Shown here one piece after another: positions 4,076-59,331 of a stretch of 64,000 bases of DNA (position 1 is its first letter; every line of letters begins with the position of its first letter). A model generated the notes under the pieces. It saw only the letters and a program-made list of their open reading frames with translations, was not told the origin of the DNA and did not search any database. Position numbers and translations under genes: made by a program. The stretch covers positions 1,842 through 65,841 of the forward strand of contig JAWOIO010000109.1 of assembly GCA_046484625.1 (NCBI GenBank), given 5' to 3'. The DNA is from Acidimicrobiia bacterium. Its GTDB lineage: Bacteria; Actinomycetota; Acidimicrobiia; IMCC26256; PALSA-555.

Positions 4076-4771
4076 ATGTCGAAGCCTGCACCGGTCGTAG
4101 TCGATGCCGACGCTCCGCTGCGCGTCTCCTCGCGGTCGGGGTCGGTCACGATCACGGCCGAGGACCGGCCCGACGTGCTCGTCGAGCGCGGTCCCGATGC
4201 CGTCGCATCACGCGACGGGGGGATCGAGATCAAGGGGAAGTCCGGTTCGGTGTCCGTGCGCTGCCCGAGCGGGTGCGACGTCGTCGTCGGGACCGGGTCC
4301 GGGTCGGTCACGCTCCATGGCGTCCTCGGCGACACCCGCGTGACCACCGGCAGTGGGAGTGTCACCGTCGAGCGCGCCGAGCGCATCGACGCCCGGACCG
4401 GCTCGGGCAGCGTGTCGATCGACGAGTGCGACGGCGACTGCCGCGCCCAGACCGGGAACGGCACGGTCCGGGTGGGCCGGGCCGCGTCGGTCGAGCTGTC
4501 GACAGGTTCGGGATCGATCGATGCCGACGAGGTCGGCGCGGCGCGCGTCCGCGTGGGGAGCGGCTCGGTCTCCGTCGGTCTGCGCGACGGTGGCGAGGCC
4601 GCGGTGGACACCGGGTCTGGCAATGTCACCGTGGTGGTGGCCGCAGGATGTTGCCCGACCACCGAGCTGCACACGAAGCGCGGCACCGTGCAGTGCGACT
4701 GCGCCCCGGGGACCGACGGTGCCATCCGCGTGCGCACGGGGAGCGGCAACATCACGGTCGAGGAGCGGTGA
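4076..4771 (+). CDS. DUF4097-like beta-helix repeat protein (putative adhesin fold), apparently cytoplasmic
   Basis: 231-aa ORF with about 10 iterations of (T/S)GSGSV(T/S)(V/I) spaced about 17-20 aa apart. No signal peptide or TM segment. Cys-rich C-terminal region (CCPTT..QCDC). Confidence 0.7.
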   Translation: MSKPAPVVVDADAPLRVSSRSGSVTITAEDRPDVLVERGPDAVASRDGGIEIKGKSGSVSVRCPSGCDVVVGTGSGSVTLHGVLGDTRVTTGSGSVTVERAERIDARTGSGSVSIDECDGDCRAQTGNGTVRVGRAASVELSTGSGSIDADEVGAARVRVGSGSVSVGLRDGGEAAVDTGSGNVTVVVAAGCCPTTELHTKRGTVQCDCAPGTDGAIRVRTGSGNITVEER

Positions 4772-55490: not shown

Positions 55491-57359
55491 ATGAAGCGAT
55501 CCAAGCGTCTTTCTCGAGCGTTGGTCGGTGCCGGACTGCTGGCGCTCGCGGTGCTCGTGCCCGCAACGGCCATCGCGGCGCCGAACGGCACCGCTGGCTT
55601 CCTGGGGGGATCCGAGCAGATCACCCAGTTCGATGTGCAGCTCACCATCGAGCCGAGCGGCGACCTCCTCGTGCAGGAGACGATCGACTACGACTTCGGC
55701 GTCCTCTCGAGGCGCGGCATCTTCCGCGACATCCCGGTGCGCTTCGACTACCCGAAGAAGGCCGACACCGACCGGGTGTACCCGCTCGACGTGGTGTCGG
55801 TACGCACGTCGGAGGGCACGCCGGGCCAGTACACGTTGGAGGAGTTCACGCAGAACGGGATCGGCTACGACCGGATCAAGATCGGTGACCCGGACCAGAC
55901 GATCACGGGCGAGCACCGCTACGAGATCACCTACCGGGTGCAGGGCGCACTGAACGGCTTCGACGAGCACGACGAGCTGGTGTGGAACGCGGTCGGGACG
56001 CAGTGGCCCGTGATCATCAACGACGTCACCGTCGAGCTGGTCGCGCCGGCCGGCATCACCGCGATCAACTGCGCCCAGGGCTCGTTCGGGTCGAACCTGC
56101 CGTGCGAGACCGCGTCGTTCGACCTCGACCTCGCGAGCTTTGCCCAGACCCAGCTGTTCCCGTTCCAGGGGCTGACCATCACGATCGGGTTGCCGAAGGG
56201 CGCCGTCCCGGAGCCCGAGCCGATCCTCGAGGAGCGCTGGACACCCGGCCGGGCGTTCGCCCTCAACGGCGGGACCGTCGGGGGTGCGGCCGTGATCGGG
56301 CTCGTCGGGTTCGGGGCGTTCTTCGCGGCGTTCGGCCGCAAGGCCCGCGACCGTCGGTTCAAGGGCGGCGCGGTCGACCAGACCTTCGGCGCCGAAGGCG
56401 GTGCCGACGAGCTGACGCCGGTCTTCGCCGAGAAGACCGAGACTCCGGTGGAGTTCGAGCCGCCCGACGACCTGCGGCCCGGGCAGGTCGGCACGCTCGT
56501 CGACTTCAAGGCCCACCCGCTCGACGTGACCGCCACGATCGTGGATCTCGCGGTGCGCAAGTACCTCGTCATCGAAGAGGTCGAGACGACCTCGCGATGG
56601 CTCAAGAACGACTGGAAGCTCACGAAGCTCGACAAGTCCGACGCCAAGCTCCTCGACTACGAGAAGGAGCTGCTCGCCGGACTGTTCAAGAGCGGCGACA
56701 CCGTCGAGCTGGGCGACCTGAAGCAGAAGTTCGCGGCCCGCATGGCCAAGGTGCAGAAGGCGCTCTCCGACGACGCGAAGGCCCAGGGCTGGTTCACGCG
56801 CGACCCGAACACGGCCCAGCTCTCCACCGGGTGCCTGGGCATCCTCGTGCTGCTCCTCGGGATCGGCGTCACGGTCGCGCTGGCCATGTGGACGAGCCTC
56901 GGCCTCCTCGGGATCCCGCTGGTCCTGCTCGGTCTGTTCTGGACGTTCAGCGCTCGCTGGGCCCCGGCCCGCACCGCGAAGGGGAGCGCGCTGCTCCGGC
57001 GCACGAACGGCTTCCGGCGCTTCATCGAGGAGTCGGAGAAGGAGCGGGCGCGCTTCGCGGAGCGCAAGAACCTCTTCTCGGAGTACCTGCCCTACGCGGT
57101 GGTGTTCGGCGCCACCGAGAAGTGGGCGAAGGCGTTCGCCGGCCTCGACGGTGAGCCGCCCGACACCAGCTACTGGTACCGGTCGAACGTGCCCTTCCAG
57201 TACGTCGCGTTCTCGCACGCGATGGACGGGTTCGCGACGACCACCGCGGGGACGCTGACCTCGACGCCACCGTCGACCTCGGGCTCGAGTGGCTTCTCCG
57301 GTGGTGGCGGTGGCTCCTCCGGCGGTGGTGGCGGAGGCGGAGGCGGGGGCTCCTGGTGA
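55491..57359 (+). CDS. DUF2207-like membrane protein with Gly-rich C-terminus
   Basis: 622-aa ORF. Signal peptide, extracellular N-terminal domain, TM helices, and a C-terminal GFSGGGGGSSGGGGGGGGGSW tail. Confidence 0.75.
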   Translation: MKRSKRLSRALVGAGLLALAVLVPATAIAAPNGTAGFLGGSEQITQFDVQLTIEPSGDLLVQETIDYDFGVLSRRGIFRDIPVRFDYPKKADTDRVYPLDVVSVRTSEGTPGQYTLEEFTQNGIGYDRIKIGDPDQTITGEHRYEITYRVQGALNGFDEHDELVWNAVGTQWPVIINDVTVELVAPAGITAINCAQGSFGSNLPCETASFDLDLASFAQTQLFPFQGLTITIGLPKGAVPEPEPILEERWTPGRAFALNGGTVGGAAVIGLVGFGAFFAAFGRKARDRRFKGGAVDQTFGAEGGADELTPVFAEKTETPVEFEPPDDLRPGQVGTLVDFKAHPLDVTATIVDLAVRKYLVIEEVETTSRWLKNDWKLTKLDKSDAKLLDYEKELLAGLFKSGDTVELGDLKQKFAARMAKVQKALSDDAKAQGWFTRDPNTAQLSTGCLGILVLLLGIGVTVALAMWTSLGLLGIPLVLLGLFWTFSARWAPARTAKGSALLRRTNGFRRFIEESEKERARFAERKNLFSEYLPYAVVFGATEKWAKAFAGLDGEPPDTSYWYRSNVPFQYVAFSHAMDGFATTTAGTLTSTPPSTSGSSGFSGGGGGSSGGGGGGGGGGSW

Positions 57360-57428
57360 GCCGCCACCCGGTCGCGGCCGCGTCCGGGGGTGCTCGGGGG
57401 GAGGAAGGCCGGCCCGACCTCGACTATG

Positions 57429-57448
57429 TGGTATCCGTTCAGATACCA
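57429..57448 (+). promoter_or_regulatory. Inverted repeat (candidate operator) upstream of the XRE gene
   Basis: tggtatc-cgttca-gatacca, a perfect 7-bp inverted repeat ending 8 nt before the ATG at 57456, in a local GC dip. Confidence 0.55.
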
Positions 57449-57455
57449 TCGGACC

Positions 57456-57773
57456 ATGGACGCTGGCACGCTGCTCCGTGAGGCCCGCGCCCGGGCCCGA
57501 CTGTCCCAGCGCGAGCTGGCCCGCCGCGCGGGTACCTCCCACGCCACCCTCTCGTTCTACGAGTCGGGCCGGAAGATGCCGTCGTACGCGACGGTCGCCC
57601 GGATCGTGCGGGCCGCCGGGTTCGTTCTCGAGTCCGACCTCGCCCCCGTCGCCGGCGGTGCCGACCGCGCCGCGCGCGGCCGCGAGCTCCTCGAGGTGCT
57701 CGAGCTCGCCGAGCTGTTCCCGGCCCGCCACGAGCACACGCTGCCCTATCCCGCCTTCGGCCGCCTCGGATGA
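57456..57773 (+). CDS. XRE-family helix-turn-helix protein (candidate antitoxin)
   Basis: Internal ATG (MDAGTLLREARARARLSQRELARRAGTSHATLSFYESGRK). Classic XRE HTH. Confidence 0.75.
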   Translation: MDAGTLLREARARARLSQRELARRAGTSHATLSFYESGRKMPSYATVARIVRAAGFVLESDLAPVAGGADRAARGRELLEVLELAELFPARHEHTLPYPAFGRLG

Positions 57774-58321
57774 GCCTCGCCGCGAAGATCGTCGCCGTGC
57801 ACGAGGCGCTCGACCGCTCCGGGATCCCCCACGCGTTCGGTGGCGCCCTCGCGCTCGCCTGGTGCACCCAGCGGGCCCGGGGCACGATCGACATCGACCT
57901 CAACGTCTTCGTCGAGCCGGCCGGCGCGGCTGACGTCCTCCGCTCACTGCCGCGCGAGGTGCGCCGCTCCGGGACCGACGCTGCAACGCTGGAACGGGAC
58001 GGGCAGATCCGCCTGTGGTGGGACGAGACCCCACTCGACGTGTTCCTGAACACCACCCCGTACCACGACGACCTGGCCCGCCGGACCCATCGCGAGCCGT
58101 TCGCCGGTGCCGAGGTGCCGTTCCTCGGCTGCACCGACCTCGCGGTGTTCAAGGCCTTCTTCGACCGGACCAAGGACTGGGCCGACCTCGAGGAGATGGT
58201 CGGCGCGGGCACCCTCGACCGCGAGGCCGCGCTCGGGATCCTCGTCGAGTACCTCGGCCCCGACGACCCACGGATCGTCCGCCTTCGCGAGCTCCCGGCC
58301 GCGGCTCTGGGGACTCCCTAG
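57770..58321 (+). CDS. Minimal Pol-beta-fold nucleotidyltransferase (candidate toxin)
   Basis: 183-aa ORF. Its start overlaps the XRE stop (ATGA). Motif FGGALAL......RGTIDIDLNVF, a G[GS]...DxD nucleotidyltransferase signature. Confidence 0.65.
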   Translation: MSLAAKIVAVHEALDRSGIPHAFGGALALAWCTQRARGTIDIDLNVFVEPAGAADVLRSLPREVRRSGTDAATLERDGQIRLWWDETPLDVFLNTTPYHDDLARRTHREPFAGAEVPFLGCTDLAVFKAFFDRTKDWADLEEMVGAGTLDREAALGILVEYLGPDDPRIVRLRELPAAALGTP

Positions 58322-59331
58322 GCGGCCGCGCCGACCGGCTTCCCGTCGACCATCTGGTCGAGGTACTCGGACAGGCCGTACCCGACCTTGCCGTCGCAGC
58401 GCCACTCGGTCATCCCCTCGGAGATCCGGGTGACGAGCTGGTCCCCCTCGGGTGTCGTGCGTCGGTTGCGCAGGGGGATGAGCGACTGCACCGTTCCCTC
58501 GATGACGTGCTCGACGTCGCCGACCTGCGCGACCGCGCGGATGCGCTCGTGGTACAGGTCGTCGGTCGCCCACTCGGTCTCGATGGTCGCCCCGGTGAGG
58601 TACGAGTACGCGCCGTCCTCGAGCCAGACGCCACCGATGCGCTGCGATCCGTCGCGCGCGGTCACGATCGAGACGACGAAGCCGCCGTCGTCGCCGAAGT
58701 TGCCCGTCAACCAGCGGTACCACCACGGCGACTGCCAGAACCGGGGCCCCCAGGAGTGGTCGCGCAGCCCGTAGCCGTCGACGACCCACTCCTCGTCGCC
58801 CACCCGGACGGTGCCGCGCCCACCGACATGCTGCTCGTAGTGACCGCGCGCGAAGCCCTCGCCCGGCTTCTCGGCGATCGGACTGCCGTCGTCGTTGACG
58901 GGCTCGCCCCCGAGCATGGGGGAGATGCCGCGGTAGTCGAGGTCGACCGCGCACTCCTCCCACGGGTTCTGGGTGAACGCGGTGCGCGGGTCGGCCATCT
59001 CGAGCGGTCGCTCGAGCACGCAGATCTTCCCGTGGTAGGAGGCCCGAAGGGACTCGAACGGCTCGACGACCTCGAAGCGCATGCCGCCGGCGTCGAAGGC
59101 GTCGTTGTGCGTGATCTCGGGCCGGTGGTACGTGAACGCGACGCGCCCGTCGGGGAGATAGAGGCAGGTGGTCATCTCCGCGTAGCCCTCGTTGGCGCGG
59201 TTGCCCAGGCGGAGGAAGCCACCGAGGCGCTCCGCCGGGTCGTACACGTTGAAGTACATGCTCTCGTTGAAGTTCGAGGCTTCTTCGAGTGGGTGCATGT
59301 ACTCGTCGGCCGGGTCGAGGCGAAGGCGCAT
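58318..59331 (-). CDS. Hypothetical protein (conserved-looking, function unknown)
   Basis: 337-aa ORF with high GC3. Trp-rich segment RDHSWGPRFWQSPWWYRW. No family confidently recognised. Confidence 0.55.
   Translation of the reverse strand: MRLRLDPADEYMHPLEEASNFNESMYFNVYDPAERLGGFLRLGNRANEGYAEMTTCLYLPDGRVAFTYHRPEITHNDAFDAGGMRFEVVEPFESLRASYHGKICVLERPLEMADPRTAFTQNPWEECAVDLDYRGISPMLGGEPVNDDGSPIAEKPGEGFARGHYEQHVGGRGTVRVGDEEWVVDGYGLRDHSWGPRFWQSPWWYRWLTGNFGDDGGFVVSIVTARDGSQRIGGVWLEDGAYSYLTGATIETEWATDDLYHERIRAVAQVGDVEHVIEGTVQSLIPLRNRRTTPEGDQLVTRISEGMTEWRCDGKVGYGLSEYLDQMVDGKPVGAAA

Follow-up and report, generated by a model that had tools for sequence, protein, structure and literature searches.

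A conserved gene pair of Acidimicrobiia that couples an XRE-family protein to a MenT1-like nucleotidyltransferase: a probable self-repressed toxin-antitoxin-type module

What is the function of two small overlapping genes, one for an XRE-family helix-turn-helix (HTH) protein and the other for a minimal nucleotidyltransferase (NTase), that lie together in a 64-kb stretch of DNA from an Acidimicrobiia bacterium (contig JAWOIO010000109.1)? The whole stretch is referred to here as the window, and all coordinates are window positions. Both genes are on the forward strand. The first (57456..57773; ATG at 57456, TGA at 57771-57773) encodes the XRE protein of 105 amino acids (aa; GenBank MFO7590612.1), a putative autorepressor and antitoxin, and the second (57770..58321; ATG at 57770, TAG at 58319-58321) encodes a MenT1-like minimal NTase of 183 aa (MFO7590613.1). 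The public records name them 'helix-turn-helix transcriptional regulator' and 'hypothetical protein', respectively. The start and stop codons overlap as ATGA (57770..57773, +), as read from the sequence, an arrangement that would couple their translation. An original prediction, made from the DNA letters, had described two overlapping reading frames of these lengths with a shared ATGA, and the open reading frame coordinates agree. A longer GTG-initiated frame (57390, 127 aa) was ruled out as the true XRE gene because homologues begin with MDA or MEA and because the operator described below falls within the extension. The cassette is probably, though by no means certainly, a bicistronic, self-repressed toxin-antitoxin (TA)-type module of the MenT/AbiEii NTase superfamily with an XRE-type antitoxin.

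Although distant, the kinship of the NTase with the Mycobacterium tuberculosis toxin MenT1 (Rv0078A) is genuine, and the NTase has an intact MenT-type active site. More than 6000 related proteins were scored, the best 120 of which are 65-99% identical to the window protein and mostly 176-183 aa long; clustering of the family at 50% yields 1158 clusters with E <= 1e-3. The AlphaFold2 (AF2) model of the NTase, built with 29 relatives (predicted local distance difference test (pLDDT) score 92, predicted template modelling (pTM) score 0.85), was compared with PDB structures using Foldseek, and the five best matches are all MenT1, in its free, MenA1-bound or T39-phosphorylated forms (E 5e-8 to 2e-5; template modelling (TM) score 0.68-0.70). 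LnuA, ANT(2'')-Ia, TM1012 and MenT3 rank below. Sequence profiles lead to the same protein: profile A2, made from 53 diverse family members, matches the MenT1 sequence at E 7e-10, and hhalign aligns the family with MenT1 at 93% probability (E 2.9e-7). Breadth of the profile matters for this result, as a profile of close relatives only (A1) failed to reach MenT1, and a search of PDB sequences with the single NTase sequence returned nothing meaningful, its top matches being chance hits to nitrite reductase (E 0.04). The comparison of hidden Markov models and structures with the MenT, AbiEii and minimal nucleotidyltransferase (MNT) families, which the original prediction had called for, thus places MenT1 first by both fold and profile and upholds the proposal of a Pol-beta-fold NTase from the AbiEii/MenT toxin superfamily. 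The accompanying view that the protein is much shorter than DUF1814/MenT proteins does not hold for its closest relative, as MenT1 chains in the PDB span 184-196 residues.

Correspondence with MenT1 extends to the residues on which the toxin depends. The first NTase motif reads FGG (24-25)-x15-D41-I-D43-L; the GG-x14-DIDL signature given previously was correct as a Pol-beta motif and trivially miscounted in its spacing. The catalytic core formed by G24-G25 ... R37-G-T39-I-D41-I-D43 (57839..57898, +) is invariant in the close family, T39 included, and can be aligned to MenT1, as can the C-terminal catalytic motif K128 ... D136-W-A-D139 (FKAFFDRTKDWAD; 58151..58186, +). In the broad-family alignment A2, residues G24, G25, R37, D90, K128, R133 and D139 are invariant, and T39, D41, D43, R81 and D136 are at least 90% conserved. 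R37, T39, D41 and D43 align with the identically numbered residues of MenT1, and R81, D90, K128, D136 and D139 align with R84, D98, K137, D149 and D152, respectively. In MenT1, the D41A, K137A and D152A mutants have lost toxicity and D43 helps to hold the metal-triphosphate (PMC10435456), while the antitoxin induces auto-phosphorylation at T39, and the NTP is contacted by R84 (PMC11375011). The window protein therefore displays the defining features of the superfamily, namely the hGG ... DxD motif with a third carboxylate on a Pol-beta NTase fold, a C-terminal catalytic Lys and Asp (K128 and D139), and a Ser/Thr two residues before the first catalytic Asp (T39), which is predicted to act as a phosphoacceptor. 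Two fused or divergent members of the family, P0225 and P0247, have lost the D-x-D catalytic motif (P0225 reads ...VTRLLEVHVL...), which suggests that inactivated NTase domains may be kept next to an XRE part.

The NTase gene and its XRE partner are inseparable in the genomes examined. A search with the NTase profile yielded over 567 species genomes, of which the best 80 were kept, and genome counts given here refer to those 80; all are metagenome-assembled genomes (MAGs), most of them labelled as Acidimicrobiia, its families, or Actinomycetota more broadly. In all 87 loci fetched, and hence in 80/80 genomes, the gene immediately preceding that for the NTase encodes an XRE homologue, with 47-71% identity to the window XRE protein over its full length. 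Of 78 loci at which the junction was scored, 62 show the 4-nt overlap; some of the remaining values are scoring artefacts. At two loci from assemblies of one ENA accession series (ERZ250395xx; L089, 3405-4004; L090, 2059-2244), the public gene calls omit or truncate the upstream XRE gene. The DNA at both does contain an XRE gene with the usual 4-nt overlap, and annotation-based counts of the pair are therefore too low.

In a sister clade, the two genes have become one. In-frame XRE-NTase fusions (P0133, P0271-P0276, P0282 and P0315; 48-89% mutual identity) have a variable linker in which the Met that once started the NTase can still be recognised. One of these fusions occurs as a stand-alone gene in a Thermoleophilaceae MAG. 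Frameshift or sequencing artefacts were rejected as their origin for the P0133 lineage, because the in-frame linker persists across proteins that are 48-89% identical. In the AF2 model of a natural fusion (pLDDT 90, pTM 0.79), the NTase half is again best matched by MenT1 and the HTH part resembles HipB, HigA2, C-proteins and DdrO. Two further architectures depart from the standard pair. P0260 keeps the C-terminal tail motif of the XRE protein next to the NTase without a recognisable HTH. In P0123 (344 aa), the XRE partner is replaced by a TIR_2 domain (E 2.3e-28) located N-terminal to an NTase that is 53% identical to the window protein; this is an architecture typical of immune proteins, and the TIR domain is typical of immune effectors and sensors.

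The part of the XRE protein that may contact the NTase is this C-terminal tail. As had been anticipated, the protein begins as a classic XRE HTH protein, matching Pfam HTH_31 (E 6.9e-15) and HTH_3 (E 1.5e-12) over residues 4-56, with HTH_19 also matched. Beyond this lies a conserved motif spanning R74-H92 (RGRELLEVLELAELFPARH; 57675..57731, +), with the form RGxELxxVLxLAxxFPARH and nine invariant positions (G, E, L, L, L, A, F, P and R; alignment A3), which forms a long helix (residues 70-89) in the fusion model and is a putative NTase-binding, neutralising element. The tail matches no Pfam family, and a search of the PDB with its profile (E <= 10) gave no significant hit and none to the MenA1 chain of 8AN5; at the level of sequence, homology to MenA1 was accordingly rejected. 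When 5.8 billion proteins were searched, the tail profile retrieved 1839, and the best 120 of these are XRE-HTH proteins, mostly of about 104 aa, together with shorter truncated gene calls. Small antitoxins consisting of the tail without an HTH were considered and rejected, since the few short matches checked are truncated gene calls that start inside the HTH; one short match again shows the 4-nt overlap with a following gene, of 181 aa. The conserved pairing, the fusions and the retention of the tail in P0260, where no HTH can be recognised, argue for a functional link between the tail and the NTase.

This partner sets the cassette apart from previously recognised arrangements. The AbiEi family is absent from the Pfam matches of the XRE protein, neither protein matches HEPN or NTP_transf_2 in Pfam, and the 105-aa XRE-HTH partner differs from MenA1, which has 68 aa and is devoid of a DNA-binding domain (PMC10435456). 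The expectation that the NTase is paired with XRE rather than AbiEi or HEPN was therefore correct, and the pairing is distinct from that with MenA1 as well.

Upstream of the pair is a 20-bp palindromic site, TGGTATC-CGTTCA-GATACCA (57429..57448, unstranded), at which binding of the XRE protein is predicted. Its arms, tggtatc (57429-57435) and gatacca (57442-57448), form the perfect 7-bp inverted repeat that had been reported before the XRE start; they enclose the spacer cgttca and end 7 nt before the XRE ATG. When up to two mismatches are allowed, the pattern occurs once in the window compared with 0.02 occurrences expected from shuffles, and neither further operator sites nor a second copy of the cassette were found in the window. 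The palindrome is kept at the equivalent place in at least 76/80 related genomes (48 exact, 19 with one mismatch and nine with two), a recurrence that lifts it far beyond chance. The family consensus is TGGTATCYGATCRGATACCA, in which arm positions 2-6 and 15-19 are almost invariant across related loci, and the spacer consensus YGATCR indicates that the ancestral site was a palindrome over all 20 bp. It is the strongest conserved non-coding feature of the cassette. One fused gene (locus L088, 4001-4870) carries a related palindrome, ATATCC-agtc-GGATAT (ATATCCagtcGGATAT), which overlaps a TATAAT box 7 nt before the ATG. A conserved operator in this position gives the cassette the architecture of an autoregulated TA pair, in keeping with the autorepression originally proposed, for which the XRE protein would itself have to bind the site.

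The operator is interwoven with a putative promoter. A -35-like hexamer, TCGACT (57420..57425, +), is read from the sequence 18 nt upstream of a -10-like box, TACCAT (57444..57449, +), which falls within the right arm of the operator, is separated from the ATG by 6 nt and conforms to TANNNT, the actinobacterial -10 pattern. This layout recurs: in 60/79 loci (class A), GATACCAT is followed after 6-7 nt by ATG or GTG, the T after the right arm yielding TACCAT, and a TtGnCA-like consensus lies 2-3 nt upstream of the left operator arm in these 60 loci. The 7-nt gap before the XRE ATG holds no Shine-Dalgarno sequence, and a generic sigma-70 scan detected no consensus promoter near the pair, where no intrinsic terminator was detected either. 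Because the TACCAT box sits 6-7 nt before the start codon and a Shine-Dalgarno sequence is lacking, the arrangement suggests a leaderless, self-repressed promoter with the mRNA start at or near 57456. The remaining class-B loci (n = 19, mostly Ilumatobacteraceae) have an operator without that T and a separate TAnnnT 5-7 nt downstream, which puts the operator in the promoter spacer and not over the -10 box. Loci of the class-B type are L016, L017, L019, L022, L025, L030, L037, L040, L044, L071 and L087 (at ~4620-4670 in each).

Taken as a TA-type module, the cassette may operate as follows. A dimer of the XRE protein would bind the palindrome, which fills the spacer between the -35 and -10 elements and overlaps the TACCAT box of the leaderless promoter, such that binding would repress the operon. 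The tail of the XRE protein would bind the NTase and keep it inactive, whether by occlusion of the active site, across whose face MenA1 lies on MenT1 in 8AN5, by induced auto-phosphorylation of T39, or by both. Induced auto-phosphorylation has been proposed for MenA1-MenT1, MenA3-MenT3 and AbiEi-AbiEii (PMC11375011; bioRxiv 10.64898/2026.01.19.700257). Judged by homology, NTase that escapes this control could add nucleotides to the 3'-CCA ends of tRNA, blocking aminoacylation and arresting translation and growth, as the free enzyme of the MenT1 type extends tRNA 3' ends and thereby stops translation (PMC10435456). In Escherichia coli, MenT1 shows no toxicity (PMC10435456).

Several observations weigh against this interpretation, the first group of which concerns the identity of the NTase and the part played by its partner. 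Although 37 of the 53 diverse family members match Pfam AbiEii at E <= 0.01 (best 4e-8) and 25/53 match DUF6036, the window NTase has no match to AbiEii (PF08843) at E <= 1; as the AbiEii match is reached by its relatives and not by the protein itself, it counts as a remote relative without formal Pfam membership. The sole Pfam family that it touches, below threshold, is DUF6036 (PF19502; 14.9 bits, E 0.023, gathering cut-off 23.6), which comprises nucleotidyltransferases without functional information, some entries bearing the name 'DUF6036 family nucleotidyltransferase'. It matches the PADLOC AbiEii model weakly and below threshold (E 0.0053), has no match in NCBIfam, and is just 16-23% identical to MenT1. 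No paper mentioning DUF6036 or describing an XRE/MenT-type pair was found in the literature searched, which is not proof of absence. The tail could instead be a dimerisation element of the XRE protein. Covalent XRE-NTase fusions, moreover, do not fit well with release of a toxin through degradation of its antitoxin. Finally, the same fold includes small-molecule NTases, to which the model bears some resemblance (ANT(2'') and LnuA; TM 0.47-0.56).

This last point opens the way to a different explanation, unlikely, though the most probable of the alternatives considered, in which a non-toxic enzyme of the ANT(2'')-Ia/Lnu kind adenylylates or cytidylylates a metabolite or an antibiotic under a dedicated XRE repressor whose tail serves in dimerisation or ligand sensing. 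Foldseek matches to LnuA and ANT(2'')-Ia (E 1e-4 to 1e-3) are compatible with such an enzyme, as are weak matches to Pfam Aminoglyc_resit in 6/53 family members, and the purifying selection, group-wise synteny and absence from mobile-element collections described below would suit a useful enzyme. Aminoglycoside-modifying enzymes are acidic, and so is the window NTase, with an isoelectric point (pI) of 4.9. However, MenT1 is equally acidic (pI 4.8), which also disposes of the charge of the NTase as grounds for doubting a tRNA substrate. Fold and sequence profile both clearly place MenT1 first, no significant sequence or Pfam match links the window NTase to ANT(2'') or Lnu, and the conserved C-terminal K...D motif and T-x-D-x-D phosphoacceptor arrangement are common to MenT1 and MenT3. 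Recurrent in-frame fusions, overlap of the genes by 4 nt and the tail kept in P0260, which lacks a recognisable HTH, furthermore point to a protein-protein relation and not to transcriptional control alone.

The second group of observations that speak against a conventional TA module concerns distribution and conservation. The cassette is present in 80/80 related genomes and is syntenic within related genome groups, which is atypical for a selfish or defensive TA system. The 81 loci fall into ~39 different neighbourhoods, with groups that share flanks (the largest of 16 loci, most labelled Ilumatobacteraceae), and the cassette therefore stays put in related genomes, relocating just occasionally. 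The NTase is more conserved than shared flanking orthologues in 117/131 locus pairs and the XRE protein in 102/131; some low-identity 'orthologues' in this comparison may be paralogues, and the trend is seen in the 60-95% identity bins as well. Both cassette proteins thus evolve no faster than their neighbours. No cassette relatives were found in 72,556 plasmids, 50,697 phage genomes or IMG/VR viral contigs. The GC content of the cassette (0.73-0.76) and that of its third codon positions (GC3; 0.92-0.93) match neighbouring genes, and the window contains no tRNA gene or Rfam family. A mobile element or island was rejected on the basis of the lack of GC or GC3 deviation, of a tRNA, and of plasmid, phage or IMG/VR relatives. 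Synteny and conservation together point to inheritance that is probably vertical, and in the Acidimicrobiia genomes examined the pair behaves as a constrained chromosomal module of long residence under strong purifying selection, not as a mobile defence island.

These data lend themselves to a second alternative, a domesticated housekeeping regulator, in which the NTase modifies tRNA, another RNA or a protein without lethal effect and the XRE protein is its obligate co-operating partner, possibly on DNA. The finding of a conserved housekeeping operon would have spoken against the original prediction on its own terms, and the cassette goes part of the way, being present in all 80 genomes, conserved beyond its neighbours and syntenic within related genome groups. 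Its spread over more than 567 species genomes, the slow evolution of both proteins, the stable covalent fusions that retain an operator, and the lack of any mobile-element association are what such a regulator should show. Against it stand the characterised MenT and AbiEii relatives, which are growth-inhibiting toxins under an upstream partner (PMC10435456, PMC11375011, bioRxiv 10.64898/2026.01.19.700257), and the placing of an operator over the -10 box for tight autorepression, a classic TA design. On balance, we regard domestication of this kind as doubtful.

Phage sensing is a known role of fused toxin-antitoxin proteins such as CapRel. A role in abortive infection (Abi) or phage defence, in which infection would release the NTase and shut down translation, is really a sub-case of the TA interpretation and draws on AbiEii, the founding member of the superfamily and an Abi toxin, and on the TIR_2 domain that stands in for the XRE partner in P0123, but it is very improbable given metabolic or housekeeping neighbours with no defence genes in the 54-62 kb region and four related loci, a stable position within related genome groups, a weak PADLOC AbiEii match, and no matches in phage, plasmid or viral collections. 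The abortive-infection role originally envisaged, like a mobile nature of the cassette, is unsupported by any plasmid, phage or viral relative or any GC or GC3 anomaly.

The immediate surroundings of the pair are unremarkable. The genes of the 54-62 kb region of the window (8 kb), and those of four related loci with gene calls that were inspected, are metabolic or housekeeping genes, with no defence or mobile-element genes among them; flanking genes in the window encode a DUF2207 membrane protein, a DUF7064/DUF7065 protein, a CoA-transferase-like protein and other metabolic proteins. The upstream DUF2207 protein (55491..57359) ends in a glycine-rich C-terminal tail, GGGGGSSGGGGGGGGGGSW (57290-57359). 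Downstream, the palindrome CTAG (58318-58321) contains both the TAG stop of the NTase gene (+) and the overlapping stop of the convergently oriented DUF7064/DUF7065 gene (58318..59331, -), and no intrinsic terminator was detected between the two genes.

In a more ambitious and rather unlikely version of the TA interpretation, the cassette would be a non-selfish, vertically inherited and strongly constrained translation brake, in which a MenT1-like tRNA NTase is held by a new class of antitoxin, an XRE repressor whose C-terminal helix of ~20 residues would suffice to bring about auto-phosphorylation of the toxin, and in which the fusions would constitute a single-chain, DNA-tethered switch. This brake would operate in neighbouring actinobacterial lineages as well as in all Acidimicrobiia examined. 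The family of MenT/AbiEii toxins, clarified only recently, stops translation through extension of tRNA 3' ends, and its structurally unrelated antitoxins induce auto-phosphorylation; the cassette would add a fourth, minimal antitoxin solution, consisting of an XRE repressor and a short helix. Natural single-chain fusions and thousands of pairs would be useful for defining the minimal antitoxin that flips the active site of the toxin. Presence in 80/80 genomes and slow evolution are unusual for a TA module, and they raise the question of whether tRNA-end modification serves as a regular form of growth control in Acidimicrobiia, which are abundant but rarely cultivated inhabitants of soil, freshwater and marine environments. 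The annotation of thousands of entries named 'hypothetical protein' or 'DUF6036' could also improve. The interest of the cassette thus rests on the breadth and constraint of the family, the tiny putative antitoxin element, the natural fusions, and the conserved operator with its leaderless design.

Partner swapping is common among TA families, and the cassette can be placed by comparing its two halves with systems already described. The closest by toxin is MenAT1 of M. tuberculosis (Rv0078B-Rv0078A; PDB 8AN4, 8AN5 and 8RR5): its toxin has the same size and fold (TM 0.69) with equivalent catalytic and phosphoacceptor residues, both toxins are acidic, and the antitoxin gene lies upstream of the toxin gene in both. 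Most menA1 homologues are likewise located upstream of menT-like genes, and FlaGs analysis recovered just 21 menA1 genes (PMC10435456), compared with thousands of members of the present family in Acidimicrobiia and related actinobacteria. The systems differ in that MenA1 lacks sequence similarity to the tail of the XRE protein and in the low identity of the toxins. The minimal Pol-beta NTases ANT(2'')-Ia and LnuA (~160-180 aa) share the core fold at lower TM scores than MenT1, and neither enzyme, as far as we know, is coupled to an XRE protein that carries a conserved tail.

In gene organisation, the cassette resembles type II TA systems with XRE antitoxins (HipB-HipA, HigA-HigB and MqsA-MqsR), in which an XRE HTH gene lies upstream of or adjacent to the toxin gene in a bicistronic operon with a palindromic operator over the promoter. 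An operon and a palindromic operator at the promoter are both found here, and DNA binding and lability of the antitoxin would be further traits of such a system. The HipA, HigB and MqsR toxins, which are a kinase or RNases, are unrelated to the NTase, and to our knowledge no member of the HipBA, HigBA or MqsRA families pairs with a Pol-beta NTase. With AbiEi-AbiEii (Streptococcus agalactiae and Lactococcus) and MenA3-MenT3, by analogy, the cassette would share the logic of an antitoxin with an N-terminal DNA-binding part and a C-terminal neutralising part that controls an NTase toxin. AbiEi-type antitoxins also autoregulate through inverted repeats in their promoters. In AbiEii and MenT3, as at T39 of the cassette, a conserved S/T phosphoacceptor (T65 in AbiEii, S78 in MenT3) precedes the catalytic Asp by two residues, and the catalytic K189 and D211 of MenT3 are counterparts of K137 and D152 of MenT1. 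Both toxins are larger than the cassette NTase (PDB chains of MenT3 have ~290 residues), and their antitoxins, AbiEi and MenA3, are of the COG5340 winged-helix type and possess a large C-terminal domain, whereas the cassette has a Cro/C1-type XRE HTH and a putative neutralising helix of ~20 residues. The cassette is thus most like AbiEi-AbiEii and MenA3-MenT3 in its working, while its toxin is nearest to MenT1 by descent.

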